A stretch of DNA of 64,000 nucleotides. Origin: an uncultured delta proteobacterium. GTDB lineage: Bacteria > Desulfobacterota > DSM-4660 > Desulfatiglandales > HGW-15. Position numbers and translations under genes: made by a program. The first letter of the stretch is position 1; each line of letters starts with the position of its first letter. Shown piece by piece: positions 1 through 14,012 of this stretch. The notes below the pieces were generated by a model. That model ran no database searches. It saw nothing but the letters and a program-made list of their open reading frames with translations, and had not been told where the DNA came from. The DNA lies in the NCBI GenBank assembly GCA_963740905.1, contig CAVUFY010000008.1, positions 190,444 to 254,443 on the forward strand. The letters run 5' to 3'.

Positions 1-289
1 CAACTTCGTGAGCGCAGGTGAAGATCAATCTTCCTTCATCCCTGTCCCCCAACAACCTCTCATTGATGACGATTCTCTTGGAATCGACGTACGTGGCGCC
101 GAGCACATCGTCTATGCCCAGTTTTGCTTCCAGATCTTCGTAGCTCAGGCTCAGGACCAGGAAACGTTCGATCACGTCTTCGACAGGGATGGGAGGACTC
201 ACTCGACGGCCGACCATGGACTCGTATCCGGCGAGCAACTCTCGGGCCTCATAAGCGATCTCTTCCTTTGTCATCCAGGGAACTCTCAT
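1..289 (-). CDS. ImmA/IrrE-family metallopeptidase, N-terminal part (runs off left edge; absent from ORF track)
   Basis: Manual translation from ATG at 289, which overlaps the XRE stop (ATGA): MRVPWMTKEEIAYEARELLAGYESMVGRRVSPPIPVEDVIERFL...VLGATYVDSKRIVINERLLGDRDEGRLIFTCAHEV(G). This is the typical 'R..FT.AHE.GH' lead-in to HExxH; the second His lies beyond the window. Confidence 0.85.
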   Translation of the reverse strand, partial: MRVPWMTKEEIAYEARELLAGYESMVGRRVSPPIPVEDVIERFLVLSLSYEDLEAKLGIDDVLGATYVDSKRIVINERLLGDRDEGRLIFTCAHEV

Positions 290-645
290 TGGTTATTCTC
301 CTTCCCCTTGCCCAGGTCCATGATCCTGACGAGTTGGGTGAGTTTCTCCCAATCGCCGTTTCTGTACCCATGCTCCTTGGCCATGCGCAGGAAGTCGGCC
401 GCCTTGGGTTCCCGGGCGACATACTCGGACAGTTCCGGATCAACCTTGCTCGCCGCCTTTAGGAGTTCTCCCTTGTCAACATTGAGAACTGCCTCCATCT
501 CGAGAATGACCCTTTCCGAGGGCGGCGGGACTTTTTCGTTTTCCAGGTCGCTCAGATACCCTGGCGATATGCCGACGCGACCGGCCACTTCCCGCAGCCC
601 CATCCTCGCTTTGAGCCTGCTTTCTTTCAGAATTCTCCCGAACAT
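286..645 (-). CDS. XRE-family helix-turn-helix transcriptional regulator
   Basis: FGRILKESRLKARMGLREVAGRVGISPGYLSDLENEK is a classic HTH_3 pattern; 119 aa. Confidence 0.92.
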   Translation of the reverse strand: MFGRILKESRLKARMGLREVAGRVGISPGYLSDLENEKVPPPSERVILEMEAVLNVDKGELLKAASKVDPELSEYVAREPKAADFLRMAKEHGYRNGDWEKLTQLVRIMDLGKGKENNQ

Positions 646-670
646 GTGTTCTATTTAATAGAACACATGT
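642..670. promoter_or_regulatory. Perfect 14-bp inverted repeat (1-bp spacer) over the XRE start codon and putative promoter; likely operator
   Basis: ACATGTGTTCTATT-T-AATAGAACACATGT. On the minus strand TTGACC (680-675) lies just upstream, and there is no SD before the ATG. Confidence 0.65.
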
Positions 671-792
671 GCTCGGTCAAGAAAAAAATGCACGTTCTTG
701 ACTCAGCCCTGGATGGAATTCACGGATTGACGAATTTTGGGGCAGGAGGTACGACCTCTCCTCGGTTTGAGAAGAAGCAACGGATTCAGAGT

Positions 793-1755
793 CTACGTTT
801 CTATCAGGTTGATCAGGTCCCGCCTTTCCCCCTGTAAAAAACGGCGAAGGTTCTCTCCGAAGATGGAGAAAACCAGGTCCACGTAATTTTCGCTCGCCCC
901 TGCCACATGGGGAGTTATGATGACGTTTCTGAGGTTCCACAGGGGATGATCTCTCGGTAATGGCTCCGTCCAAAAAGTGTCCAGGGCCGCCCCTGCGAGT
1001 TTCTCCTCTTCGAGTACCTCGATCAAGGCTTGTTCATCCACCACCTTTCCCCTGCCCAGATTGATCAGATAGGAAGTCGGCTTCATGGCGGAAAGCACCT
1101 CCCTGTTTACCATATGTTCGGTCTTCGAAGTGTAGGGAACCACGATGATGAAATAGTCAACCTTCGGGATCACCTGAAGAATCTCTGATGGATCATGAAA
1201 ATAATCCACCGAGCCAACCGGCCTTTTGGTGACGTCCATGCCATAGACGGTCATTTCGAAGGCCTTGCACTTGTTCGCGATTTCCTCTCCTATGACGCCG
1301 ATACCCAGGATGCCCACATTCTTTCTATGAAGGAGTTTCCCCGGCCAACGCTCCCAGACTCTTCTTTCCTGGTTCTTCACATTTTGGGAAAAATTCCGGC
1401 TCAAAGACAGCATGAGGAGAATAGCCATCTCAGAGACCTGCGGTCCATGAATACCCCTGGCGGAAGTCAGCAGAATATCTTTCTTGTAGGAAGGCAGGTC
1501 TACGATATAGTTGACCCCTGAGGTCTTGACCTGAATCCACTGGAGCTTCCTGGCCCTTTGGAGAAGCCCGTCGGAGATTTTTCGGGTGAGAAGGATGTCG
1601 GCCTCTTCAATGAGCGAGCCGATGTCCTCTTCCTTCGAGAAGGCATGTACGGTCACTTCCGGAAACCGGCTTTGTACCGCAGCTTTGTAACCCTCTCTCT
1701 CATCCGTATCATCCAAGATAATCAATTGCATTCCTGAATCCCTCACCGTGCTCAT
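793..1755 (-). CDS. D-2-hydroxyacid dehydrogenase family protein
   Basis: GILGIGVIG NAD-binding motif, LINLGRG, AALDTF, ITPHVAG catalytic His motif. Confidence 0.92.
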   Translation of the reverse strand: MSTVRDSGMQLIILDDTDEREGYKAAVQSRFPEVTVHAFSKEEDIGSLIEEADILLTRKISDGLLQRARKLQWIQVKTSGVNYIVDLPSYKKDILLTSARGIHGPQVSEMAILLMLSLSRNFSQNVKNQERRVWERWPGKLLHRKNVGILGIGVIGEEIANKCKAFEMTVYGMDVTKRPVGSVDYFHDPSEILQVIPKVDYFIIVVPYTSKTEHMVNREVLSAMKPTSYLINLGRGKVVDEQALIEVLEEEKLAGAALDTFWTEPLPRDHPLWNLRNVIITPHVAGASENYVDLVFSIFGENLRRFLQGERRDLINLIET

Positions 1756-2081
1756 TGAATCCTGGCCCGTCCTTTGATTAAGGCCATCTCCTCCGAACTC
1801 TTAATCGCTTTGAACTGGTACGGCTTTTTTTTCGTATAGGCGGTCGCTCTTATTGTCAAGGAAAGTCTGATTTTTCCAAAAGTCTGTAGGAAATTCTTGA
1901 GATTTTTGATGTGACGTTCTTCCGGAACCAATTCCATCTTGGATAGCAATTCTCCCAGGGTAGTTTTTCTCCCTTGCCCGGGTCGCTTAGAATGGATTAG
2001 AGTCTCAATTTGTGCGCCGACTTGGGCTCTTGCGGAGAAGTTCTATGGCCAGGTCTGGTCTTTTTTTTGACTTGTCTTTTC

Positions 2082-3347
2082 ATGGATGCACACCCGAAAA
2101 AGCATCGATTCTTCTATGGTTATGTTGTGGCCGCAGCCGGCTTTATTGCCTGGTTTATCGGCTGGGGAAGCTACTCAACATGTTTCGGTCTCTTTTTCAA
2201 ACCGCTGGTCACGGAGTTTCAATGGACACGCGCAGACACGTCCTTCGCATTCTCTGTGTCTTTACTGGTCCAGGCCACTCTGGGGATAGCGACAGGCTGG
2301 CTCACGGATAGGCTGGGTCCGCGGATTGTGGTGACCGTCTTCGGTTCTTTTCTGGGCTGGTCTCTTTTACTCATATCTCAAGTCCACGCCCTTTGGCAAC
2401 TCGTTATTGCCTATGCGATCGTGGGAGGCATAGGGGCAAGCGTCTTGAACATTCCGATCATGGCAACGGTCTCCCGATGGTTTGTCAAAAGACGTGGACT
2501 CATGACGGGCCTTGTGCAGTCCGGAGCGGGCCTGGGCGGGTTCTTTCTCGCGCCCTTCACCGGACGCTTGATCATAAGGTATGGATGGAGAAACGCCAGC
2601 AATATGCTCGGCATCATGACTTTGACTCTGATAGTGCTCGCAGGCTTGCTTCTCATCCGGGATCCCGGGGATGCGGGGCAAGTTGCAGACGGAATCCAGA
2701 CCGGAAGGAAAAAGACCGCGAAGTCCCAAAGAGAGAAAGACAAGAGCTCCGGATCTCCTTTTCGGGTCTTTATGTCCCCGGCTCCGTTCTGGGTGATTGC
2801 CGGCATCTACGCCAGCTTCGGCTATTTCAGATCCACCTTCACCACCCATACTGCGGCCCATGTTCAGGACATGGGATTCTCTCTTTCTGACGGGGCAAAC
2901 GTTCTGGCCCTGATTTCCGCAAGCAGTATCGTCGGCAGGATCGGCATGGGACGGGCGGCGGACAAGATAGGGAATCGGCCCGCGCTGATGATCAGTTTCA
3001 TGGTGACCACATTGATCATTGGTTGGCTGCTCACCGCGAGAAGTTTATGGGCGCTATATCTTTTTGCGGCCGTCTATGGTTTCGGCTGGGGCGCTCTGGC
3101 TGTTCTCAGATTCGCCATCACTGCTGAAGTGTTTGGATTGGCCTCAGTGGGATTCATCATGGGAACCCTCGGGTTCTCGGAATCCTTGATCGCTGCCTTT
3201 GGGAGCTATTTCGGTGGGTTTGTCTTTGACCTTTCCGGGAACTATGACCAGGCATTTCTGATCTGCATGGCCATTTCTTTCACCGGCGTCTTTCTATCAT
3301 GGCGGCTGAAACCGAATCAGTTTCCGGGCAGGCAGAGACCTCTGTAG
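2082..3347 (+). CDS. MFS transporter (OFA/MCT-like)
   Basis: About 12 hydrophobic segments, GWLTDRLGPR MFS motif A, WFVKRRGL; start chosen at ATG 2082 (track ORF opens at 2010). Confidence 0.88.
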   Translation: MDAHPKKHRFFYGYVVAAAGFIAWFIGWGSYSTCFGLFFKPLVTEFQWTRADTSFAFSVSLLVQATLGIATGWLTDRLGPRIVVTVFGSFLGWSLLLISQVHALWQLVIAYAIVGGIGASVLNIPIMATVSRWFVKRRGLMTGLVQSGAGLGGFFLAPFTGRLIIRYGWRNASNMLGIMTLTLIVLAGLLLIRDPGDAGQVADGIQTGRKKTAKSQREKDKSSGSPFRVFMSPAPFWVIAGIYASFGYFRSTFTTHTAAHVQDMGFSLSDGANVLALISASSIVGRIGMGRAADKIGNRPALMISFMVTTLIIGWLLTARSLWALYLFAAVYGFGWGALAVLRFAITAEVFGLASVGFIMGTLGFSESLIAAFGSYFGGFVFDLSGNYDQAFLICMAISFTGVFLSWRLKPNQFPGRQRPL

Positions 3348-3406
3348 AACAAAGATTTTCTTGATCCGGCATCGAGCCTATGGTACATACCTTCTTGTCT
3401 TCGTTT

Positions 3407-3565
3407 TGACGGCTTCCTAAAAAGTCCATCTGTGTCGTTGCGTTTCATCGTCTCAAGAAAGTGACGAGTCACGAGTTACAAGCATTTGGTCTCGTTACTT
3501 GTTACTCGTCACTCGTAACTGAGATGGCTATGCCGTCCACTTTGAGGACTTTGGCGAAGTTGTCT
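3407..3565 (+). repeat. MITE/REP-like palindromic element, family A (GTGACGA-type heptads), copy 1
   Basis: Ends TGACGGCTTCCTAAAAAGTCC ... GGACTTTGGCGAAGTTGTC are imperfect inverted repeats. The core holds inverted heptad arrays, and the element aligns with the reverse complement of 63470-63630. Confidence 0.75.
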
Positions 3566-3725
3566 TGTTATGCCAGATAAGAGTACCTCTTTATCCGAGG
3601 AAATAAATCTACTGCGGGGCTTTAGCCGCAAGCCAACAGTTCCGACAAACCATGCCAGGATTCCCAGCCTCCCTTTTGTTGAGCCGCAGTGACATCGAGA
3701 ACCGGCTTTCCTTCGGAGAACGACC

Positions 3726-5171
3726 ATGAGAAAGACCATCGAGTCCTACCTGGACCGCTTGCAAGAGAAGCTCCCAGGGGATCTGATCCTCATTAAGAAG
3801 AGTGTGAATCCGGCGCGATTTGATGTGACGGCGATCTTACAGCACCTGGAAAACCGAGGCAAGTATCCCGCCCTTCTCTTTGACAACGCCTTGAATCTGA
3901 AAGGAGTTCGGTCCCCTTTCAGGCTCCTGACCAATGTTTTCGCAAGTAGACGAAGATGTGCGCTGGCCCTTGATTTGGACTCGCTTCAGTGGAAGCTCGA
4001 ACTGAGCCTTGAATATGCCAAAAGAGAGAATCGCCAGATCCCACCGGAGGTCATTTCCAAAGAGACTGCCCCTGTAAAGGAGGTAGTCAAGAAAGGCCCT
4101 GAAGCTGACTTAAGGGATTTCCCGATCCTTCGCCATCACGAAATGGACGGTGGACCGTACATAGACATGGTGGTGGTGATGAGAGATCCCGACGAGGGCT
4201 TCTACAACGCTTCCTTCCACCGCAATGAGTACAGGGGGCCACAGAAGATGGGGATCCACATGTCACCGCGCCATAACTGGACCATCTTCAGAAAGAATGA
4301 GGAGAGAAATCGACCGACACCTGTTGTCGTGATCGTGAGCCATCATCCCGCCTTCTTCCTGGGTGCCCTCAATGTGGCCGGATTCGGGACGAACGATTAT
4401 TCCTTAATCAGCGGCATTATGGGTGAGCCCCTGAGGCTGACGGCTTCGGAGACTTGGGGAGAAGAATTTCTGGTTCCTGCCGACGCCGAGATCGTCATCG
4501 AAGGCACCATACCGCCGAAGACACGGGAGATCGAAGGGCCTTTCGGCGAGTTTCCCGGGACCTATGGGCCCCAACGATGGAGACCGGTTATCGAAGTCAA
4601 GGCTGTCACTCACAAAAGCATGGCCATTTACCAGGATATCTTTGTCGGACATCGGGACACGTGGATTGTTGGCGGCATTCCCAAGGAAGGTAGTCTTTTC
4701 AACGCCATAAAAGGCGTGGTCCCGACAGTCAAGGCAGTCCATTTTGCCGTCTCCGGTGCATGCCGCTTCAACTGTTACATCTCCGTGGATAAGAAGGTGG
4801 AAGGCGAGACTAAACAGGCGGCCCTTATGGCCATGGCCCAGTGCGACTTTGTGAAAAACGTGATCGTCGTCGACGCGGACGTGGACCCCTTCAATGAGCA
4901 GCAGGTCATGTGGGCCGTGGCCACCCGGGTTCAACCGGCCGAAGACGTGGATATCATCAGGAACATCAAGGGGAACACTCTTGATCCATCCTTGACCCAC
5001 GATATCAGGGGTAGCAAGATGATCATCGATGCGACAAAGCCTGTGGACCGTCCTTTTGCGCGAAAGGTTAACGTGCCGGATGAAGCGTTGGACCGGATAA
5101 GGCTTGAGGACTTCATCGATCGGAAAGTCCTCGCCAGACTGACCGTTCCCGATGAAGAGGCTTGTGGGTAG
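3726..5171 (+). CDS. UbiD-family (prFMN-dependent) decarboxylase
   Basis: FHR (catalytic Arg region), EGPFGEFPGTY (E-x4-E), VVDADVDPFN, WAVATRVQP, LDPS, KMIIDATKP; 481 aa. Confidence 0.95.
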   Translation: MRKTIESYLDRLQEKLPGDLILIKKSVNPARFDVTAILQHLENRGKYPALLFDNALNLKGVRSPFRLLTNVFASRRRCALALDLDSLQWKLELSLEYAKRENRQIPPEVISKETAPVKEVVKKGPEADLRDFPILRHHEMDGGPYIDMVVVMRDPDEGFYNASFHRNEYRGPQKMGIHMSPRHNWTIFRKNEERNRPTPVVVIVSHHPAFFLGALNVAGFGTNDYSLISGIMGEPLRLTASETWGEEFLVPADAEIVIEGTIPPKTREIEGPFGEFPGTYGPQRWRPVIEVKAVTHKSMAIYQDIFVGHRDTWIVGGIPKEGSLFNAIKGVVPTVKAVHFAVSGACRFNCYISVDKKVEGETKQAALMAMAQCDFVKNVIVVDADVDPFNEQQVMWAVATRVQPAEDVDIIRNIKGNTLDPSLTHDIRGSKMIIDATKPVDRPFARKVNVPDEALDRIRLEDFIDRKVLARLTVPDEEACG

Positions 5172-5187
5172 AGAGGAGGAAACATCG

Positions 5188-5343
5188 ATGGTCAGAATCT
5201 TCACAATCGCCTGTCCCAAGTGCAAGAAGGAGTTTGAAGTCCATTTTGAGGAACTGCGGCACAGGGACATAAAACTGCACTGCCCCTATTGTGACAACTG
5301 GTTCCACCAATCAGAGAGCGACCAGATCGATGAGCGCTGGTAG
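5188..5343 (+). CDS. Small zinc-ribbon protein (51 aa, CPKC...CPYC)
   Basis: SD GAGGAGGA precedes ATG 5188; MVRIFTIACPKCKKEFEVHFEELRHRDIKLHCPYCDNWFHQSESDQIDERW; lies 16 nt after the ubiD stop. Confidence 0.8.
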   Translation: MVRIFTIACPKCKKEFEVHFEELRHRDIKLHCPYCDNWFHQSESDQIDERW

Positions 5344-5390
5344 AAAGATGACCCTTTCTGCCCCGTTTATGTCACTGAGATGAAAGGAGA

Positions 5391-6377
5391 ATGGATATGA
5401 GGTTTTTACATTCGATTAAGCCAGCCGTTTTGATGACCATGATAGTGGCTCTTGGAGCCCCTGTACCGAGTTATGCTCAGCCGCCAAAGGCGCTCGCCCT
5501 GGGAACTTCTTCCATGGGTAGCGCCTTCTATGCCATTTCCGTGGTCATGGCTAATGCCATTTCCAAGAAAAGCGGCATCAACCTGAATGTCGAACCGGTG
5601 GGCGGATCGGACGCCACCGTTCGAGGGCTTATCGCGAAGAAGGTTGAACTGGCCATGCTCAATGCCAATACAGCGGTTAACGCCTACACAGGGGCGGGCT
5701 CCTATGCCAAGTCCGGCAAAGCCCCTATCTCCCTCATCGCCCAAGGCCAGGACAGCCTTAGGCAGATCGTTGTTCGCAGAGACTCCGGCATCAGGACGAT
5801 AGGTGATCTGGTGGGCAAGAAGTTCATCGCCCGGCGAAGAGCCAACATTGAAATGGAACAGATGGCGGATATCCTCCTGGAGCTTTACGGAGTGGACAAG
5901 AAGAGCGTGAAGATCATTGAGACCGTGGAGTCCAACGAGACCGCGGATGCCCTGAAAGTGGGCAGCGTGGATGCAGCCATTTTGCCGGGTGGACTCCGAG
6001 CGGGCTACATCCTTGATCTGGCCCAGTCCGCGGACCTTGTCTTCCTCCAGATCCCGGATGACAAGATGGATGCCCTTGTCAAGAGAATGGGCCCCGCTTT
6101 TTATGTGACCACCATCCCGGCCAACACCTACCGGGGGCAGACCGAGGAGGTCAAGGCGCTTGCGATGCCGGCTCTTCTGGTGTGCAGACAAGACCTGGAT
6201 CAAGAGACGGTTTACAAGATCACCAAGGCGCTCTTTTCCAGCCACGATGAAATGAAGAACGGACACGTATCGGGAGCGGACTGGAATTTGAAGAACACCC
6301 TCAAGAGTGAGCCCATTCCCTTTCACCCCGGCGCCATCCGATACTTCAAAGAGATCGGAGCATGGAATAAGTCTTAA
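5391..6377 (+). CDS. TAXI-family TRAP transporter solute-binding subunit
   Basis: Signal peptide, GTSSMGSAFY, PANTYRGQ, PIPFHPGAIRYFKE; SD AAAGGAG. Confidence 0.93.
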   Translation: MDMRFLHSIKPAVLMTMIVALGAPVPSYAQPPKALALGTSSMGSAFYAISVVMANAISKKSGINLNVEPVGGSDATVRGLIAKKVELAMLNANTAVNAYTGAGSYAKSGKAPISLIAQGQDSLRQIVVRRDSGIRTIGDLVGKKFIARRRANIEMEQMADILLELYGVDKKSVKIIETVESNETADALKVGSVDAAILPGGLRAGYILDLAQSADLVFLQIPDDKMDALVKRMGPAFYVTTIPANTYRGQTEEVKALAMPALLVCRQDLDQETVYKITKALFSSHDEMKNGHVSGADWNLKNTLKSEPIPFHPGAIRYFKEIGAWNKS

Positions 6378-6398
6378 CCTGCAACTTCTTTGCATGTT

Positions 6399-6452
6399 GC
6401 GGAGGAGTTCTAAGCTCCGGTCTGGGGGGGTAGTCTCTTTAGAGCCGCAACC
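6399..6452 (-). repeat. Repeat family F, partial copy (inverted)
   Basis: Reverse complement GGTTGCGGCTCTAAAGAGACTACCCCCCCAGACCGGAGCTTAGAACTCCTCCGC aligns with 25087-25138. Confidence 0.7.
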
Positions 6453-6543
6453 GGAAATGGACTTGCCCTTTCTAATCGCCCCAGAGTTCTCAAGTCTTCT
6501 TCTGAGAAGGCGCAAGCCACGAGCCAACCGAAGAGGTCAATGA

Positions 6544-6571
6544 ACTACCCCGCAGCAAACTACGGGATATC
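6544..6571. repeat. Short REP-like imperfect palindrome
   Basis: ACTACCCCGCAGCAAACTACGGGATATC; a similar motif occurs at about 36824-36853. Confidence 0.45.
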
Positions 6572-6582
6572 GAACCTATTTC

Positions 6583-6647
6583 GTCATGCCGGACTTGATC
6601 CGGCATCCAGTCCTTCTTTTCTGGATTCCGGCGTTCACCGGAATGAC
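6583..6647. repeat. REP-like double-hairpin element (GTCATGCCGG...GGAATGAC type)
   Basis: GTCATGCCGGACTTGATCCGGCATCCAG-N-CTGGATTCCGGCGTTCACCGGAATGAC, two nested hairpins; a fragment TTGATCCGGCATC also occurs at 3361. Confidence 0.75.
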
Positions 6648-6690
6648 AAAACCGCAGGAAGCCGCGGGAAATGCACTCAAAGGGATTCAA

Positions 6691-6783
6691 TGGGGCTACC
6701 ACCATAACCCATTGAGTTTTCGGCGTCGGTTTCACGCCCCAGTGGAAATGGTTGCGGCTCTGAAGAGACCTCCCATGGGGCGG
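6691..6783 (+). repeat. Repeat family F copy
   Basis: TGGGGCTACCACCATAACCCATTGAGTTTTCGGCG...GGTTGCGGCTCTGAAGAGACC aligns with 25029-25120. Confidence 0.75.
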
Positions 6784-6870
6784 CTCGGGAGAACCGTTTG
6801 GTCGCGACCGTTGTCCTGCATTAGGTAAATAGAGTCGCCGATTCCATTGCCGGCACGAGAGGAGCATCCG

Positions 6871-8772
6871 GTGAACTTCAAAAAGTCTGTTGGAATCGTT
6901 GCGGGCCTGGCCTCGCTTTACCAGCTTTTCATGGCCAGCCGTATCTTGACTTGGCTCGGCTATTTTGTCCCGGAGCAGAAGCATAAGGCAGTATGCCTGA
7001 TGTTTGCCCTGTTTCTCGTCTATGCCCTGATCGCAGGACACGGCAAGATTCGAAAAGCCAATCTGGCCTGGCACGATGTGCTTCTTCTTGTTGCAGGTCT
7101 TATCGGGAGCGGATTTGTCGTCTTCAACTACGGAGCCATTCTCGATTACTCGATGGACGGCTTCCTTGACACAAAGGGTATCATTCTGTGTTTCCTTCTC
7201 GCTGCAAGTCTTTTTGAAGCCGTTCGCAGAATGACGGGGTTAGCACTTCCCATAATTGTGCTTGTCTTCCTGCTGGGCACGGTGTTCCAGAACCACCTCC
7301 CTGGCCTCCTCCATGGAAAGGGTTTCGACTTGGATCGCCTCGGATTTGCCCTTTACGTGGGAAGAGGCGGAATTTTTGGTGTTCCTCTCGGTGTCGCGAC
7401 CACCATCCTCATCACCTACATCATCTTTGGTCGCTTCATGCAGGATGCCGGGGCGGGGAAGTTTTTCATCGATCTGGCATTAGCCGCCACCGGGTGGATG
7501 CGAGGTGGCGTGGCCAAGGCCACTATCTTTGCCAGTTGTCTTTTCGGCATGATCACCGGATCCCCTTCCGCGGAGGTCGCCACGGTAGGAAGTATCTCCA
7601 TTCCCATGATGATCCAGACCGGATACAGGCCGCGGTTTGCGGCAGCGGTCGAAGCCGTTGCCGGAACAGGTGGGCAGTTCATGCCTCCGGTAATGGGCGC
7701 CATTGCCTTCATCATGGCGGAATGGATAGGGGTTCCGTACGGGCAGATAGCAAAGGCCGCCTTCATTCCAGCGGCGCTCTATTTTTTTGTGCTCTTCGTC
7801 TCGATCCACTTCGAGGCCGTCAAGACGGGACTTAAACCCGTTGAACGCAAAGATATCCCTTCGCCTTGGGCGACCCTCAAAAAGGGCTATTTTTATCTTC
7901 TCCCTTTGGCGCTTCTCATCTACCTCCTGATAGGGCGAAACTTTCCGCCCGAAATGGCCGGCATGTACTCTTGTCTCATGCTTGTCGCCGTGAGTTTCAT
8001 GTCTCATGAAAAGAAACATCGTCTCACGCCTGCAAGATTGTGGGGTTCTCTGGTGGAAGGAGCGAAGACATGGCTTGTCGTGGCCGTTGTCACCGCTACG
8101 GTAGGGATGCTGATCGGGGCACTGGAGTTGAGCGGGCTTGGAATCAAGTTTTCAGCCTTCATCCTCGATCTTACAGAAGGTAACTTGCATCTCACCCTTC
8201 TCCTGATCGGCCTATCCAGCTTTGTACTGGGTATGGGTCTGGATTCCATTCCGGCTTACATCACCCTGGTCATCCTCGCAGCCCCGGCGCTGGTAAAACT
8301 TGGGGTGCCCGTCATGGTGGCACACCTCTACGTGGTATACTGGGGACTCGCGTCTTTTATCACCCCGCCCGTCTGCCTCGCCGTTTATGTTGCCTGCGGC
8401 ATCAGTAACACGAAGATCTTGGAGACAGGCTGGGAGGCGGTGAAGCTCGGGATATGCGTCTTCATCATTCCATTCGCCTTTGTTTATAACAGGGCTCTTC
8501 TGGCACAGGGAATGCCTGGAGAAATACTCGCCGCCGTTTTAACCGCCACTTTAGGGGGAATTCTTGTGGCCGTCAGCAACAGAGGCTACTTCCTCTCCCC
8601 GGTCAGACGATGGAAGAGAGTCGCCGTCTTCGTCGGCGGCATCGTCCTCATAGGGCCCACGACAATCTGGAGCACCGCCATCGGCGTGGCCCTCGGAATC
8701 GCGGGACTTATAGGCCAAAGATCGCCCAAGCCTTTAAGCCTCCTCACCGCCGAGGACCAGCCGGAGCGATAG
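6871..8772 (+). CDS. TRAP transporter fused permease (4TM/12TM, TAXI-associated)
   Basis: Highly hydrophobic; SSxxFGMITGS-like, GGQFMPPVMGAIAFIMAE, LGMGL, ITPPVCLA; GTG 6871 follows SD GAGGAG. Confidence 0.93.
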   Translation: MNFKKSVGIVAGLASLYQLFMASRILTWLGYFVPEQKHKAVCLMFALFLVYALIAGHGKIRKANLAWHDVLLLVAGLIGSGFVVFNYGAILDYSMDGFLDTKGIILCFLLAASLFEAVRRMTGLALPIIVLVFLLGTVFQNHLPGLLHGKGFDLDRLGFALYVGRGGIFGVPLGVATTILITYIIFGRFMQDAGAGKFFIDLALAATGWMRGGVAKATIFASCLFGMITGSPSAEVATVGSISIPMMIQTGYRPRFAAAVEAVAGTGGQFMPPVMGAIAFIMAEWIGVPYGQIAKAAFIPAALYFFVLFVSIHFEAVKTGLKPVERKDIPSPWATLKKGYFYLLPLALLIYLLIGRNFPPEMAGMYSCLMLVAVSFMSHEKKHRLTPARLWGSLVEGAKTWLVVAVVTATVGMLIGALELSGLGIKFSAFILDLTEGNLHLTLLLIGLSSFVLGMGLDSIPAYITLVILAAPALVKLGVPVMVAHLYVVYWGLASFITPPVCLAVYVACGISNTKILETGWEAVKLGICVFIIPFAFVYNRALLAQGMPGEILAAVLTATLGGILVAVSNRGYFLSPVRRWKRVAVFVGGIVLIGPTTIWSTAIGVALGIAGLIGQRSPKPLSLLTAEDQPER

Positions 8773-9090
8773 CCCCCACGTCTTTTTCCTCCAGGAATCG
8801 TCCGTGGAGTGCGACTTCATCGTATCTCGTTGAGGCCAAGGACCGATGCTGGAAGGAAATAATCAAGACGGACGACTGTGTAATCCATTCCCGCATCGAT
8901 AACACCCGAGATTTTCCGGGGTTTCTCCTGCCAGGACTCTGGAATCTATGTAGCGAAGGACTGAGGTTCAATAAACTTGTGTATCAAGCGAAAAGGCCCT
9001 AAGATATTCATTTGACCATGATCTGAATGAAGAGACTTTCTCGGATCAAAAGCCCGAGAATGTGAAGAACGCGCCGCAAGGGAAAATGCA

Positions 9091-10302
9091 ATGGAGAGTC
9101 TGGTTGGCGTCTCACCGAACAACAAACCACACAAAAGCGATTCGGCCTACGATACGTGGGGAATTCTGTTTCTCGCATCGATTTTTTTTCTGTCCTATAA
9201 CGGACGTTCCGTCACCGGTCCTTTGCTTCCCAGCCTTGAGCTTGACCTCGGCCTCAACCACACGGAGAGTGCAGGGCTCTTCATCTACCTGTTTCTGGGT
9301 TTCGTGGTATCTCTCCTGGGCTCAAGCTTCGTATCATCCCTGATCGGTCATCGCCGAACGATCGTCCTTTCCGCCGTCGCTGTGGGCCTGACCCTGATGG
9401 CTGTCGCCGGAAGCCGTTCGATGTGGGCTTTATGCATCGGTTTGATAGCGACAGGCTTGGCCTCAGGGCTGTACATCCCTTCCGGCATCCCGGCCTTGAC
9501 CAAGCTTGCAAAACCGGCCCACTGGGGCAGAGCCATAGGGATCCATGATATGGCTCCCAATCTGAGCATTGTGGCGGCGCCTGCTCTGGCTGCAATCCTG
9601 CTCCACTGGATATCGTGGAGAGGCGTTTACTTTGTGTTCGGAATCATCGCGGTTTTCGTGGGATTGACGTTTATCCGGTTCGGACCGCAGGTGCCCGGCC
9701 GAGGTCAGACTCCGGACCCGATCACGCTCAAATCGCTCCTGGGTGAATCTCAGTTATGGATGATCTGTATCCTCTTCAGCGTGGGGTCTGCCGGATTGAT
9801 AGGCATCTACAACATGCTCCCTCTTTATCTTACCACTGTCCATCATTTCGATCCCTCTTCAGCCAACCTGATCGTCGCCCTGTCTCGCGTTCCGGGCATC
9901 GGAATGGTTCTCATAGCTGGATGGAGCGTGGATCGCGTAGGACCGCGCAAGGCGATCGCCGTTTCTCTAGCCTGCTCCGGTGCGCTGGCTGTGATGATCG
10001 GGGTGGAGTCAGGCGCGCCGTTGATGGCGGCGATTTTTGTTCAGGCGGTCGCGGCCGCCTGTTTTTTCCCTGCTGCTTTGGCTGCAATATCCCTTCTGTT
10101 TCCTTTTGAGTTGAGAAGCCCGGTGACAGCAATGGCGGCCGTTTTTTCCAACCTGGTGGGATCAGGGCTCATATCCGCTTTGATGGGGCTTTTAGCCGAC
10201 TATGGAATGTTCAGGACAGGGGTGGTACTCAATGGGGTTATCGTTCTGGCCGGACTTCCGGCCCTCTTCTTCCTGAAGGTCGGAAGAAACGCTGAATTCT
10301 GA
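9091..10302 (+). CDS. MFS transporter
   Basis: About 12 TM segments, GWSVDRVGPR motif, WGRAIGIH; 403 aa. Confidence 0.85.
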   Translation: MESLVGVSPNNKPHKSDSAYDTWGILFLASIFFLSYNGRSVTGPLLPSLELDLGLNHTESAGLFIYLFLGFVVSLLGSSFVSSLIGHRRTIVLSAVAVGLTLMAVAGSRSMWALCIGLIATGLASGLYIPSGIPALTKLAKPAHWGRAIGIHDMAPNLSIVAAPALAAILLHWISWRGVYFVFGIIAVFVGLTFIRFGPQVPGRGQTPDPITLKSLLGESQLWMICILFSVGSAGLIGIYNMLPLYLTTVHHFDPSSANLIVALSRVPGIGMVLIAGWSVDRVGPRKAIAVSLACSGALAVMIGVESGAPLMAAIFVQAVAAACFFPAALAAISLLFPFELRSPVTAMAAVFSNLVGSGLISALMGLLADYGMFRTGVVLNGVIVLAGLPALFFLKVGRNAEF

Positions 10303-10330
10303 GAATTTGCAAAAGACCAGAAATTTCTGA

Positions 10331-13300
10331 ATGCCTTCGAAGCGCCTCAAAAGAATACCGATCATCGCTCTTGCAGGGATCGCAACGCTGATTCTTGCAG
10401 CCTACGTGGTCCTGCTGAACCTCGACTTCGACCGATTTAAGCCCCTGATCGTTGAGGCCGTGAAACAGACAACAGGCTTGGAACTCGTCCTTCATGGGAA
10501 CATCACGATAACACCCGGCTTCAACCTGAAGGTTGCTGTCGACAACGTAAACATCGGGGGTATTCCTTGGGAGTCACGGTCCGAGACGGCCACGGTTAAG
10601 CGCTGTGAAATGAGTCTGGCCCTTTCGCGCCTGATCAGAGGCTTTGTCCAGATCGATCGACTGGTTTTCATCGAGCCGGATGTCTTCATCGAGACCAGGG
10701 CGGCAGGAAAGATCAACATCCCGGAAACGGAGATCAACCGTCGGAAGCTGCCAAGCGGTGTGACCTCAGGCCGCATCCCGATTCTTCCTGTAAGAGAAGT
10801 ACAAGTGAAAAAAGGCCGCTTCTCCTACAAGAACGACTTTTCAGGCAAGATTTATTCTCTGAATGTGGAACGCCTTACCCTGACGGCTACAGACATGGGG
10901 AGTCAGGTCCGAATGGAAATCCTCGGATTGCTGAACGGCAGGCCGGTTGAAGCGGAAGGATCCCTGGGCTCGCCTGGCGCATCAATCGACTCCAACGATC
11001 CCTGGACGGTGAACTTGACAGCAAAGGCGGGAGACGCTGTGGCGAGCGTCCAGGGGACGATCAAAGACATGAGGAAGCTCAAAGGCATTTCATTGAAGAC
11101 CCATGTTCAGGGACCATCCATTTCCAGTGCCCTCTCCCTGGCTGGCATGCGGCTGGCCCAGGATCTCGGTTCCTTTTCTCTCGATGCCGCACTAAGTGAT
11201 CCTGAAGGCAGACTCTCCCTCGGTCCAATCAGTCTTCTCCTTGGCAGCGACAAGCTCGCTCTGATTCGCATCAACGGAACCATACAGGACCTTCCGGCCC
11301 GACAGGGAATCCACCTGGGGTTCGCGGCCCAATGTAAGGATTTATCCAGTCTGTCCCGGCTCTCTCCAAAACCGTTCCCGCTTCGAGGCCCCCTAGCGCT
11401 ATTTGGAACCATCGTTGATCCCGGTCCAGGGATTCTCAGCGTTCCCGACCTTCGAATCAGCCTCGGAGACAAAGACATCATCGGTTCGGTCCGATTGGAT
11501 TTGGCGGGTAAATTCCCGCGATCGAGCATAAAGATCGCTTGCCAGGACCTGGATCTTGGGAATTTCCTGCCGCCCGGCCCGGGAAAGTCGACCTGGGTTC
11601 ATGTCCTGAAAAGGATGGGGTTCATCGATTTAGCGCTCTCCGTGGCTGGCCCATATGGGCGACCGGTCGTTGAGGAACTCGATTTTCGTGCCGGAACCAT
11701 TGAGGGAGCAGCGCTGACAATCAGAGGAGCGATAAAGGACCCCTTGACCATGACCGGGATAGAAGCCGGCTTCAGTTTTCAGGGCAAGGACGCGGCCAAC
11801 CTGGAAAAGCTTTTCGGAAAACCCTTTGCACTCAAGGGCCCCTTTATGGTTTCAGGGCATATCAAGGATTCTTTGCAGAAGGTCCTCGCATGTGACGACC
11901 TCGAAGCAACGCTGGGGAGAAACGAAGTGACAGGTTTGGTGAAGTGGGATATGGCCGGCAAGAAGCCCCGGCTCGATGCAGCGCTTATTACCCAGAAGTT
12001 GGATCTGGAACCGGTCTTGCGGCCCAGGCTGGTAAGCTCGAAATTCTTGAGAGTTCTTCCGTCATTGGGGCCCGTCAGTCTGACGATCTCCATGTCCGAT
12101 CTTGCCGGGAAAGTCGCCGTGCAGAAAATGAAAGCTCATGTGGGGACCGACGATTTGGCCGCCCTGGACCTTAATGGTTCACTGCAGGATCTTTTGAGGC
12201 TACGGGGGATTCGGCTCGACTTGGCGGTCCGGGGTGGAGACGCAAACCGTCTGGAAAAAATTTTTGGAAGGCCGGTTCCTGTTAAGGGGCCTTTTTCCCT
12301 TTCCGGAGAGATTCTCGACACGGGCAGGGGAGAGTTCAGGATGAAAGACTTCCTGGCAACGCTGGGCGGCAACGAGTTGCGGGGTCAAGTGGCTTTCAGG
12401 CTGGGAAATGTTCCTTTTCGGATGATGGCGGAGCTTTCATCACAAAATTTCGATTTGCGCATGGTAGATGGAATGAAGAAAGCCCGTGGAGAGGTGCTTC
12501 ATGCCATCGGACCCTGGACGCTGGGTTTCACCCTTTTGAATGAAGGAGGCAAGCTTGTCGTCCCAAAGGCGAATCTCAGTGTCGAGATCCGAAACACGGC
12601 AGAAACGAAAATCAGCGGGGTTATCCAGGATCTCGTTGCATGGCAGGGCGTTGATGTTAAATTCTCTGTTCGTGGCCGAGACGTTAAGAGCCTGGAAAAG
12701 CTGACAGGCAAACCGGTGCGTTTAGGGGGTGCCTTCGCCCTCTCCGGCCGACTGGTCGATCCCAGAGCCGGAATCTACAGGGTTCGTGAGTTTCGCGGCC
12801 TCCTTGGCGACAATGACTTTAACGGTTCTTTCGAACTGGATCTCACAGGCAAACGGACGCATCTTTTCGCAGACTTCTCCTCCAGGGCCCTTGACCTGCG
12901 GCCCCTCTTCGCCAGGCCCAAGTCCAAGCCGAATCCGAAGAAAGACTCCGAGCATGGCAAGCCCAAAAAAGACACCAGAGTTTTACCCACCGAGCCCTTC
13001 CATTTGGAGTATTTCCATCTTCTGGACGGGGCGATAAAGTGGCGAGCCGAGCAAGTTCTGCTACCCCGTCTCACGCTCGAAAGGGTGACCGCTGACATTT
13101 CGCTTGAGGATGGCCATCTGCAATTGGATCCGTTTCAATGTGCCGTGGGAGGTGGCACCGCAAAGGGCCGGTTTGACCTGCAACCTCGGCTCAGGAAAGT
13201 CACCAGCAAACTGATTCTAAAGGCCTCCCGGGTCGATCTTGGCTCCGTGTCCGCAGAACTGGGAGTCAGAAAATTCCTCGAAGGGACCCTGGGGGCCAAT

Positions 13301-13972
13301 ATTAACGTGGAGGGACAGGGCGGTTCCATGGCGGAACTCGTGGGCGGCCTCAGCGGCACCGTTCTGCTCGCGGAGCGCGACGGCCGGGTCTATACGAGTG
13401 AGATCGATTTTCTCGGTTCTTCCCTGTTCAGTAAGGTTATTAAACTCATCAATCCCTTCAGTCAAAAGGAAAAGTATAGCGAGCTCTACTGTAACGTGCA
13501 GCACTTTGAGATCAAGAAGGGTTTGGCTGACTGCAGGACATGGCTTGCCGACACCAAGTACACTAATGTGAGGGGGGGCGGCAAGATTGACCTTCGCCGT
13601 GAGACGTTGGATCTCTTGTTCGCGCTGTCGCCGACCAACAGTGGCATCGGCATCAAGGGGATAGCCGGATTCGATCTGCCCTCCCTTACCAACTCATTTG
13701 AGGTCAAAGGGACTTTCGCCCGTCCCTCAATCAGCCTGAATCCAAGCGGAGCGGTGGAGGCCATAGGGAAGATGGTTGGGGGCTTCGCCCTCCTTGGTCC
13801 CCTCGGACTTGCCGCCGGATTGATTGACTTGAACGGAGGAAAAGAAAATCTTTGCCCTCAGGTTATGGAAGCCGTAGAGAAAGGTCACGATATTCCTGAA
13901 GAGATAGAGAGGCAATCCCCGTCCCGCGTCCATCCACCTCCTTTTCCTCCCATGAACGACGGAGGGTATTGA
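10331..13972 (+). CDS. AsmA-family protein with internal repeats (1213 aa)
   Basis: N-terminal anchor followed by the DFDRFKPLIVEAVKQTTGLEL AsmA start, repeated beta-rich units ending in LDL/FDL, and a C-terminal AsmA-like region. Confidence 0.85.
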   Translation: MPSKRLKRIPIIALAGIATLILAAYVVLLNLDFDRFKPLIVEAVKQTTGLELVLHGNITITPGFNLKVAVDNVNIGGIPWESRSETATVKRCEMSLALSRLIRGFVQIDRLVFIEPDVFIETRAAGKINIPETEINRRKLPSGVTSGRIPILPVREVQVKKGRFSYKNDFSGKIYSLNVERLTLTATDMGSQVRMEILGLLNGRPVEAEGSLGSPGASIDSNDPWTVNLTAKAGDAVASVQGTIKDMRKLKGISLKTHVQGPSISSALSLAGMRLAQDLGSFSLDAALSDPEGRLSLGPISLLLGSDKLALIRINGTIQDLPARQGIHLGFAAQCKDLSSLSRLSPKPFPLRGPLALFGTIVDPGPGILSVPDLRISLGDKDIIGSVRLDLAGKFPRSSIKIACQDLDLGNFLPPGPGKSTWVHVLKRMGFIDLALSVAGPYGRPVVEELDFRAGTIEGAALTIRGAIKDPLTMTGIEAGFSFQGKDAANLEKLFGKPFALKGPFMVSGHIKDSLQKVLACDDLEATLGRNEVTGLVKWDMAGKKPRLDAALITQKLDLEPVLRPRLVSSKFLRVLPSLGPVSLTISMSDLAGKVAVQKMKAHVGTDDLAALDLNGSLQDLLRLRGIRLDLAVRGGDANRLEKIFGRPVPVKGPFSLSGEILDTGRGEFRMKDFLATLGGNELRGQVAFRLGNVPFRMMAELSSQNFDLRMVDGMKKARGEVLHAIGPWTLGFTLLNEGGKLVVPKANLSVEIRNTAETKISGVIQDLVAWQGVDVKFSVRGRDVKSLEKLTGKPVRLGGAFALSGRLVDPRAGIYRVREFRGLLGDNDFNGSFELDLTGKRTHLFADFSSRALDLRPLFARPKSKPNPKKDSEHGKPKKDTRVLPTEPFHLEYFHLLDGAIKWRAEQVLLPRLTLERVTADISLEDGHLQLDPFQCAVGGGTAKGRFDLQPRLRKVTSKLILKASRVDLGSVSAELGVRKFLEGTLGANINVEGQGGSMAELVGGLSGTVLLAERDGRVYTSEIDFLGSSLFSKVIKLINPFSQKEKYSELYCNVQHFEIKKGLADCRTWLADTKYTNVRGGGKIDLRRETLDLLFALSPTNSGIGIKGIAGFDLPSLTNSFEVKGTFARPSISLNPSGAVEAIGKMVGGFALLGPLGLAAGLIDLNGGKENLCPQVMEAVEKGHDIPEEIERQSPSRVHPPPFPPMNDGGY

Positions 13973-14012
13973 GCGCAAAGGGCCGGGTTCTTCTCTGAAG
14001 TGACTAGCGGGA

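Follow-up and report, generated by a model that had tools for sequence, protein, structure and literature searches.

A UbiD-family enzyme of two subunits, in which a zinc ribbon serves as activator, is already known from VdcCD (BsdCD, ShdCD) of Sedimentibacter hydroxybenzoicus (7ae4), where the UbiD-type gene is followed by a gene for a small Cys4 ribbon with its CxxC knuckles ~20 residues apart and the prenylated FMN cofactor (prFMN) comes from a UbiX-type enzyme (PMC8379154). The ribbon, ShVdcD (C3, C6, C28 and C31), is required for the activity of VdcC, contacts its ERE loops and forms a salt bridge to its R133 (PMC8379154). HmfF of Pelotomaculum thermopropionicum (6h6v), from the hexameric branch acting on (hetero)aromatic acids, owes its furan specificity to H297 (PMC7976604). 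In clusters for the anaerobic breakdown of phthalate (Pcd with TAXI-TRAP in Aromatoleum/Azoarcus) and isophthalate (IPCL/IPCD in Syntrophorhabdus aromaticivorans) a UbiD gene stands beside a TAXI-TRAP importer. The locus considered here lies in a 64-kb stretch of DNA from an uncultured delta proteobacterium, the whole of which is referred to as the window, and has as its core a cassette of four genes, 3726-8772, for a UbiD protein, a Cys4 zinc ribbon of 51 residues, a TAXI binding protein and a fused TRAP permease. Genes and sequence, a predicted complex and the literature were used in its analysis. What is new, as far as sequence comparison can tell, is a separate UbiD clade whose small partner has no detectable similarity to VdcD, here accompanied by a TAXI-TRAP importer; a literature search found no paper describing this UbiD/zinc-ribbon clade. 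The cassette and its spacers are as follows.

3348-3725, no strand: spacer 5' of ubiD, 378 bp, with a dispersed repeat that has an inverted-repeat core, and the ubiD ribosome-binding site GGAGAA
3726-5171, plus strand: ubiD, large subunit of a UbiD-family prFMN-dependent (de)carboxylase, 481 aa (PF01977, PF20695, PF20696, TIGR00148)
5188-5343, plus strand: Cys4 zinc ribbon, 51 aa (CPKC, 19 residues, CPYC), probable small activating subunit
5391-6377, plus strand: TAXI-family TRAP solute-binding protein, 328 aa (TIGR02122, 240.8 bits; cut-off 84.35)
6378-6846, no strand: TAXI-permease spacer, 469 bp, made of dispersed genome repeats, parts of which reach ~70 copies
6871-8772, plus strand: fused TRAP permease of DctQ-DctM type (TIGR02123, 564.2 bits; cut-off 320.65)

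A previous sequence-only reading had proposed that seven genes at 793-10302 form a locus for uptake and (de)carboxylation. Open reading frames (ORFs) and family matches bear out all seven genes in position and family, and the co-orientation that it described for ubiD, the zinc ribbon, TAXI and the permease is correct. Of the locus itself, the linkage of a catabolic UbiD to an importer stands, whereas the 9.5-kb stretch is not one unit: judged by gene order in relatives, the conserved unit is smaller and limited to the four-gene cassette. Shine-Dalgarno sites are visible in the cassette, and its gaps measure 16 nt from ubiD to the zinc ribbon, 47 nt from there to TAXI and 469 bp from TAXI to the permease. 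The mechanical ORF of the zinc ribbon begins at 5152 and overlaps ubiD; all orthologues begin at the methionine of MVRIF, which corresponds to ATG 5188, preceded by an AGGAGG site and situated 16 nt past the ubiD stop. For the permease the mechanical start is TTG 6847, and since homology with the orthologous locus L015 runs from 6872 on, GTG 6871 is the likelier start. The TAXI protein carries an N-terminal signal peptide (judged by eye), and binding subunit and fused permease, both above their cut-offs, are adjacent despite the repeat-filled spacer, so that the pair qualifies as a TAXI-TRAP system.

The UbiD protein has the domains PF20695, PF01977 and PF20696, all above gathering thresholds, and reaches 299.8 bits with TIGR00148 (cut-off 244.85). 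Its catalytic network, R166/E270/E275 (EGPFGE motif), is invariant in 26 orthologues and again in 28 of 28 orthologue rows. Grouping with the housekeeping quinone enzymes was not seen: the ubiquinone model PRK10922 gives 106.6 bits against a cut-off of 788 and the menaquinone model TIGR03701 183.3 against 495.9. The VdcC model NF041204 is likewise missed (304.1 bits; cut-off 650), which sets the protein apart from VdcC, and so are the cut-offs of the phenylphosphate carboxylase subunits. A catabolic, non-housekeeping UbiD is thus supported by profile scores. By bits its solved relatives are HmfF (301; 6h6v/6h6x), ShVdcC (207; 7ae4), AroY (154) and InD (118), followed at a distance by E. coli UbiD (93), Fdc1 (81) and Pcd (55; 8oz5). 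Like HmfF, it falls in the hexameric branch for (hetero)aromatic acids, and it is distinct from the clade of acyl-CoA-type UbiD2 proteins. Placement relative to the characterised references (Fdc1, AroY, Pcd and others) derives from these PDB and NCBIfam scores, the trees having been built from other sequences. Orthologues at 56-94% identity are numerous, and all those listed come from uncultured bacteria, assigned to Desulfobacterales, 'Deltaproteobacteria', Binatia, Rokubacteria, Acidobacteria, Chloroflexota, Tectomicrobia and Burkholderiales. Among 40 genomes of the host's genus, family and order no orthologue was found, the top matches being paralogues of 41-43% identity; the cassette is therefore patchily distributed, and was probably acquired.

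The sequence-only reading had listed the zinc ribbon as one gene among the others, an assessment that undervalues it. In a FastTree phylogeny of 129 UbiDs from the orthologous loci and the host genome, all UbiDs with an adjacent zinc-ribbon gene fall within one clade of 37 rows (support 96). The clade was defined on that tree, so that an IQ-TREE analysis of 79 rows, which gives it an SH-aLRT of 98, is a check of method and not an independent test. The small gene is adjacent in 30 of the 37 members, with one further remnant; no copy lies within 1.5 kb in four orthologues and in two rows from the wider clade. Outside the clade, 92 rows have no zinc-ribbon gene of their own, four of them merely flanking the ribbon of a clade member. 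A combination of tblastn and motif scan located a CPxC/CPxC protein of 49-83 residues directly beside UbiD in most orthologous loci and also in a subclade ~40% identical to the window UbiD; across the clade the gap between the two genes is usually below 100 nt. No other partner of this UbiD is as strongly conserved as the zinc ribbon.

The small protein resembles VdcD in position and cysteine spacing and differs from it in sequence and in having no proline-rich tail. None of 29 members of the small-protein family matches an NCBIfam family named VdcD at E <= 1, and the ribbon itself matches only generic zinc-ribbon models, below their cut-offs. A search of PDB sequences with its profile returned eukaryotic C2H2 fingers and generic ribbons, with no VdcD chain among the listed matches. 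An AlphaFold model of the isolated ribbon (four short strands, pLDDT 68) found nothing in the PDB at E <= 0.001 with Foldseek, its fold resembling generic zinc ribbons only. Profile searching recovered 145 protein clusters, each of which is labelled 'hypothetical' or bears a wrong name, such as that of the RNA polymerase subunit RpoP.

Structure prediction placed the two proteins in a complex with an ipSAE of 0.86, compared with 0.00 for the best of three controls. The same level was attained by 58 of 80 solved complexes and by 2 of 110 mismatched pairs, counts that apply here only roughly because the alignments used were our own. Three complex runs share at least 98% of contacts, with a partner pLDDT of at least 92. 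The predicted interface on UbiD (139-143, 269, 271-272, 279-285 and 418-425) flanks E270 and E275 and takes in the loop after R136, the residue with which ShVdcC R133 aligns; as in VdcCD, contact would thus be made at the E-R-E loops. Regardless of the model, alignment shows no variation across 28 orthologues at the interface positions M140 and Y280-G281-P282-Q283-R284, which are largely retained in the wider clade and vary among the 92 rows outside it, so that interface residues go with the presence of the small gene. By analogy with VdcD, the zinc ribbon is probably a small activating subunit of the UbiD, which it would bind physically. That it should instead be an independent small protein, for instance a regulator or a cofactor-loading chaperone sharing the operon without being a subunit, is very unlikely: the missing similarity to VdcD, the generic fold matches and the absence from five orthologous loci would suit such a protein, but the two genes are neighbours in one clade only, across lineages whose names fall in at least six phyla, usually with short gaps, the invariant residues at the predicted interface are clade-specific, and the complex model is strong against its controls.

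Importer linkage is kept in close orthologues, so that neither this check on the earlier reading nor the comparison with housekeeping enzymes speaks against it. Locus L015 repeats the order UbiD, zinc ribbon, TAXI and permease, closely spaced (identities 85%, 88%, 80% and 88%), and L100 (UbiD 94%, TAXI 90%) is collinear with window positions 3329-6135. In L103/L104 (UbiD 72%) a sigma-54 activator gene, UbiD, a zinc ribbon left uncalled in a gap, two TAXI genes and a permease follow one another; the L103 permease is 68% identical to that of the window. More distant orthologues adjoin a divergent TAXI gene (L017), TctC (L010 and L101) or ABC-type binding proteins (L011 and L025). Comparison of the loci thus shows binding-protein uptake systems recurring beside the UbiD gene, with conservation of this particular TAXI-TRAP pair limited to the close subclade. 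TAXI and fused permease genes lie near UbiD genes at four separate loci of the host genome. Against the PDB the TAXI protein matches only distant TAXI proteins (at most 114 bits), so that no ligand can be deduced from structure. In L103/L104 (10001-15510) the two TAXI genes ahead of the single fused permease gene are different, so that a single permease may serve two binding proteins that differ in ligand.

Conserved residues of the UbiD bear on the nature of its substrate. K320 and R347 are invariant in orthologues and align with the basic R304 and R331 of HmfF; VdcC has no counterpart of either. T312 stands where HmfF has its furan-specifying His, a position that is N, T or D in orthologues and His in nine of nine HmfF-like rows from Burkholderiales. 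Invariance of the further clade-specific residues H178, H206, Y225 and K431 suggests one common substrate across orthologues. Recurrent neighbours within the clade are a second UbiD (12 loci), a three-subunit xanthine-dehydrogenase-family enzyme (11 loci) and PaaK-like ligases (seven loci). In the orthologue group at 63-65% identity, the molybdenum subunit of the three-subunit enzyme has its top match in the 4-hydroxybenzoyl-CoA reductase alpha model (829 bits; cut-off 995; next family 538) and the flavoprotein subunit in the corresponding beta model. In the ~40% subclade (L013, L014, L038 and L039), which includes a species of the host genus, the UbiD-zinc ribbon pair lies between the genes for the Fe-S/FAD and molybdenum subunits; L038 and L039 have a fused TRAP permease downstream, and L039 a TAXI gene too. 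The window itself contains no such neighbours.

These observations bear on whether the enzyme is a true HmfF orthologue, a 2,5-furandicarboxylate decarboxylase whose importer takes up that compound, which appears rather unlikely. HmfF is the best solved match, K320 and R347 have their equivalents in it, and JGI automatic naming calls several orthologues '2,5-furandicarboxylate decarboxylase 1'. Distant clade members, moreover, adjoin a CoA ligase and the three-subunit enzyme, which is also the layout of hmfABCD beside hmfFG. On the other hand, the match to HmfF is of 301 bits, the protein lies in a clade separate from the HmfF-like proteins of Cupriavidus and Paraburkholderia (32-33% identical), the furan-specifying His is replaced, and the three-subunit enzymes fit 4-hydroxybenzoyl-CoA reductase models best. 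Gene context differs as well: loci of the HmfF-like clade on the FastTree phylogeny have no zinc-ribbon gene beside UbiD, and no small subunit is known for HmfF. In Cupriavidus the ubiX-type gene hmfG is adjacent to hmfF, whereas no ubiX adjoins the window UbiD. The last feature also distinguishes the cassette from the VdcCD locus, with its adjacent ubiX/vdcB and no TAXI-TRAP importer.

The earlier reading called the UbiD an orphan; the host genome in fact encodes 11 UbiDs and one UbiX. Its call to locate ubiX in the genome has a clear answer: the single copy (G000:C4:25830-26372; 245.7 bits, cut-off 108.9) is unlinked to the cassette and lies in a phenylphosphate synthase/carboxylase (pps/ppc) cluster with the order ppsAB-like genes, ppcB, two ppcD-like genes, ppcA, a further UbiD and UbiX. 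The absence of ubiX and CoA ligase that it reported for the window holds: tblastn of the 64 kb found no UbiX, no PaaK-like or AMP-dependent ligase and no xanthine-dehydrogenase-family gene. Its conclusion that CoA activation is missing holds for the window and not beyond, as a PaaK-like ligase is encoded ~20 kb upstream and its counterparts are adjacent in L101 and L103. The host possesses an unusually large aromatic-acid toolkit. Its genome also has ~19 matches to xanthine-dehydrogenase-family large subunits, five PaaK-like ligases and roughly 30 AMP-dependent ligases, and on C19 a UbiD gene lies 128 nt past the end of a gene for a molybdenum subunit.

The upstream ligase belongs to an isophthalate-type module on the same contig, ~20 kb upstream of the cassette ubiD (C8:171-181 kb), which consists of a GntR regulator, a UbiD (C8:171986), a ~97-aa protein, the PaaK-like ligase, TAXI, a fused permease, a UbiD and a divergent UbiD. 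In S. aromaticivorans the isophthalate cluster has a UbiD, a small hypothetical protein and a PaaK-like ligase (PMC9516798). The likeness is one of layout: here, too, a PaaK-type ligase resembling IPCL is found with a small protein and a second UbiD, ~20 kb upstream in the host and adjacent in L103/L104; the cassette enzyme would differ from the phthalate and isophthalate enzymes, which decarboxylate CoA thioesters and have no zinc-ribbon partner. Ligases from Pelotomaculum bins of terephthalate reactors share 53% identity with the upstream one.

Orthologues of the upstream genes stand divergently beside a window-type UbiD-zinc ribbon pair in L101 and L103/L104 (UbiD 77-78%, small protein 55-63%, ligase 47-50%), and in L103/L104 the two modules are fused. 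Compared with C8:171-181 kb, L103 has a UbiD2 at 78%, a 99-aa protein at 55% and a PaaK-like ligase at 50% identity; its first TAXI protein is 61% identical to that of the upstream cluster and its second 57% to that of the window, with one permease common to both. That both host clusters form a single locus in L103/L104 speaks for a common pathway or for substrates that are related.

Two homologous proteins of ~85-97 aa in the upstream module belong to no Pfam family, and each follows a UbiD gene (C8:171986 and C8:179960):

G000:C8:173462-173752 (L098:2963-3253), plus strand: small protein after the UbiD at C8:171986
G000:C8:179703-179957 (L098:9204-9458), minus strand: small protein after the UbiD at C8:179960

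Their orthologues follow the same type of UbiD in L101 and L103, and they are reminiscent of SynarDRAFT_0374, beside the isophthalate-CoA ligase. They may be another family of small UbiD partners.

Taken together, the residue pattern, the importer and the CoA-ligase module favour as substrate an aromatic di- or polycarboxylate whose decarboxylation product stays an acid, and the following pathway can be proposed. The TAXI protein would bind an anionic aromatic or heteroaromatic carboxylate in the periplasm and pass it to the fused TRAP permease. In the cytoplasm the two-subunit enzyme would take off one carboxyl group without CoA activation, its large subunit using prenylated FMN supplied in trans by the single UbiX, while the zinc ribbon would sit on the catalytic-Glu loops and hold their active arrangement, as VdcD does for VdcC. 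The product, probably still a carboxylate, would go to the PaaK-like CoA ligase and the second, acyl-CoA-type UbiD ~20 kb upstream, and on towards benzoyl-CoA. This account as a whole, from import through CoA-free decarboxylation by the UbiD/zinc-ribbon enzyme to hand-over to the upstream module, is judged reasonably probable. A narrower version, in which the enzyme is a CoA-independent decarboxylase of benzene di- or polycarboxylates (terephthalate, trimellitate, hydroxy-isophthalates) acting upstream of or parallel to the isophthalate-type module, is unlikely.

Several observations weigh against the proposed pathway. Intact adjacent zinc-ribbon genes are lacking in 5 of 28 orthologous loci; the enzyme may not need the ribbon, or the gene may lie at another place. 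The solved VdcCD may have shaped the complex model, which would then reflect likeness rather than binding. Several orthologues have no TAXI-TRAP system, L016 having no importer and L010 and L101 having TctC instead, and in the window the 469-bp spacer between TAXI and permease could break co-transcription. The link to the upstream module is based on one lineage (L101 and L103/L104) and the 20-kb proximity. The idea of a dicarboxylate leans partly on the role of HmfF R304 and R331 in binding the distal carboxylate.

The direction of the reaction also has to be weighed. The enzyme might act as a carboxylase that activates unsubstituted or phenolic aromatics under anoxic conditions, as phenol is carboxylated by reversible 4-hydroxybenzoate decarboxylases, the transporter being unrelated or exporting the acid formed. 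The host degrades aromatics anaerobically and has pps/ppc genes and 11 UbiDs, and genes like those of 4-hydroxybenzoyl-CoA reductase, together with CoA ligases, flank clade members, all of which would be in keeping with carboxylation. UbiD reactions are, besides, reversible (PMC8988006). A carboxylase is nevertheless quite unlikely, as a binding-protein uptake system adjoins the gene in many lineages, the genome already has an ATP-dependent route for phenol, and the clade also has members in lineages named Burkholderiales, Rhodoferax, Rokubacteria and Binatia. TRAP systems, furthermore, are importers. Decarboxylation of an imported acid is the direction preferred here.

Three genes that flank the cassette are treated, on gene order, as neighbours outside it:

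793-1755, minus strand: D-2-hydroxyacid dehydrogenase (PF02826, 186 bits), neighbour only
2082-3347 (ORF from 2010), plus strand: major facilitator superfamily (MFS) transporter of oxalate/formate-lactate type, by family match, neighbour only
9091-10302, plus strand: second MFS transporter, by family match, neighbour only

It is highly improbable that all of 793-10302 is one catabolic locus in which the MFS proteins move related compounds and the dehydrogenase acts in the pathway. The genes are physically adjacent, and the 94%-identical contig (L100) is collinear back to the end of the first MFS gene. However, that gene is collinear in no other contig, none of the three recurs beside any orthologue apart from this near-identical one, and transcription of the dehydrogenase gene is divergent. 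In L015 the gene after the permease codes for a subtilase, not for an MFS protein. In 40 related genomes the closest relatives of the two MFS proteins (54% and 41% identity) have no UbiD, TAXI or dehydrogenase gene adjoining.

The spacers within and before the cassette show similarly restricted conservation. The repeat upstream of ubiD (within 3400-3530) has ~20 copies in the genome, and the spacer that holds it is conserved only in L100, not in L015. L015 also has no repeat spacer between TAXI and permease, the distance there being 40 nt; one of the spacer repeat elements is present elsewhere on the L015 contig. Alignment of upstream DNA revealed no shared promoter or operator beyond the near-identical contig. 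A promoter/terminator scan was uninformative, promoter-like sites being rarer than in shuffles, and an Rfam scan of window positions 1-14000 (E <= 0.1) gave no match.

At the start of the window a 218-aa ORF, 2-658 on the plus strand, was rejected as spurious, having no family match and lying opposite real genes. Those on the minus strand are an XRE-type helix-turn-helix gene (286-645) and a gene for an ImmA/IrrE M78 peptidase that crosses the window start; an AAA ATPase gene and a DUF1257 gene lie further upstream, to G000:C8:190037. The XRE/M78 peptidase pairing is typical of mobile or defence islands and stands between the upstream aromatic cluster and the cassette. At the other end, a gene for a 1213-aa AsmA-family/DUF748 protein (10331-13972) starts 29 nt past the second MFS gene.

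UbiD enzymes are pursued for reversible aromatic (de)carboxylation and CO2 fixation, and VdcD is the only zinc-ribbon accessory subunit studied so far. The second family found here marks a whole uncharacterised UbiD clade found in bacteria of soil, groundwater and sediment with assignments to at least six phyla; if its proposed role is true, zinc-ribbon activation of UbiD enzymes would have evolved a second time, in an independent family. Gene callers often miss the small gene, and heterologous tests of the clade that leave it out would probably fail. Through the importer the substrate can be approached directly, by screening of TAXI ligands, and the linked isophthalate-type module draws attention to aromatic polycarboxylates, whose anaerobic pathways are incomplete. 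According to a 2026 review, no anaerobic pathway for terephthalate has been elucidated (PMC13040137). Should the enzyme prove to act on benzene di- or polycarboxylates, the cassette would be the first genetic handle on anaerobic terephthalate or polycarboxylate degradation.

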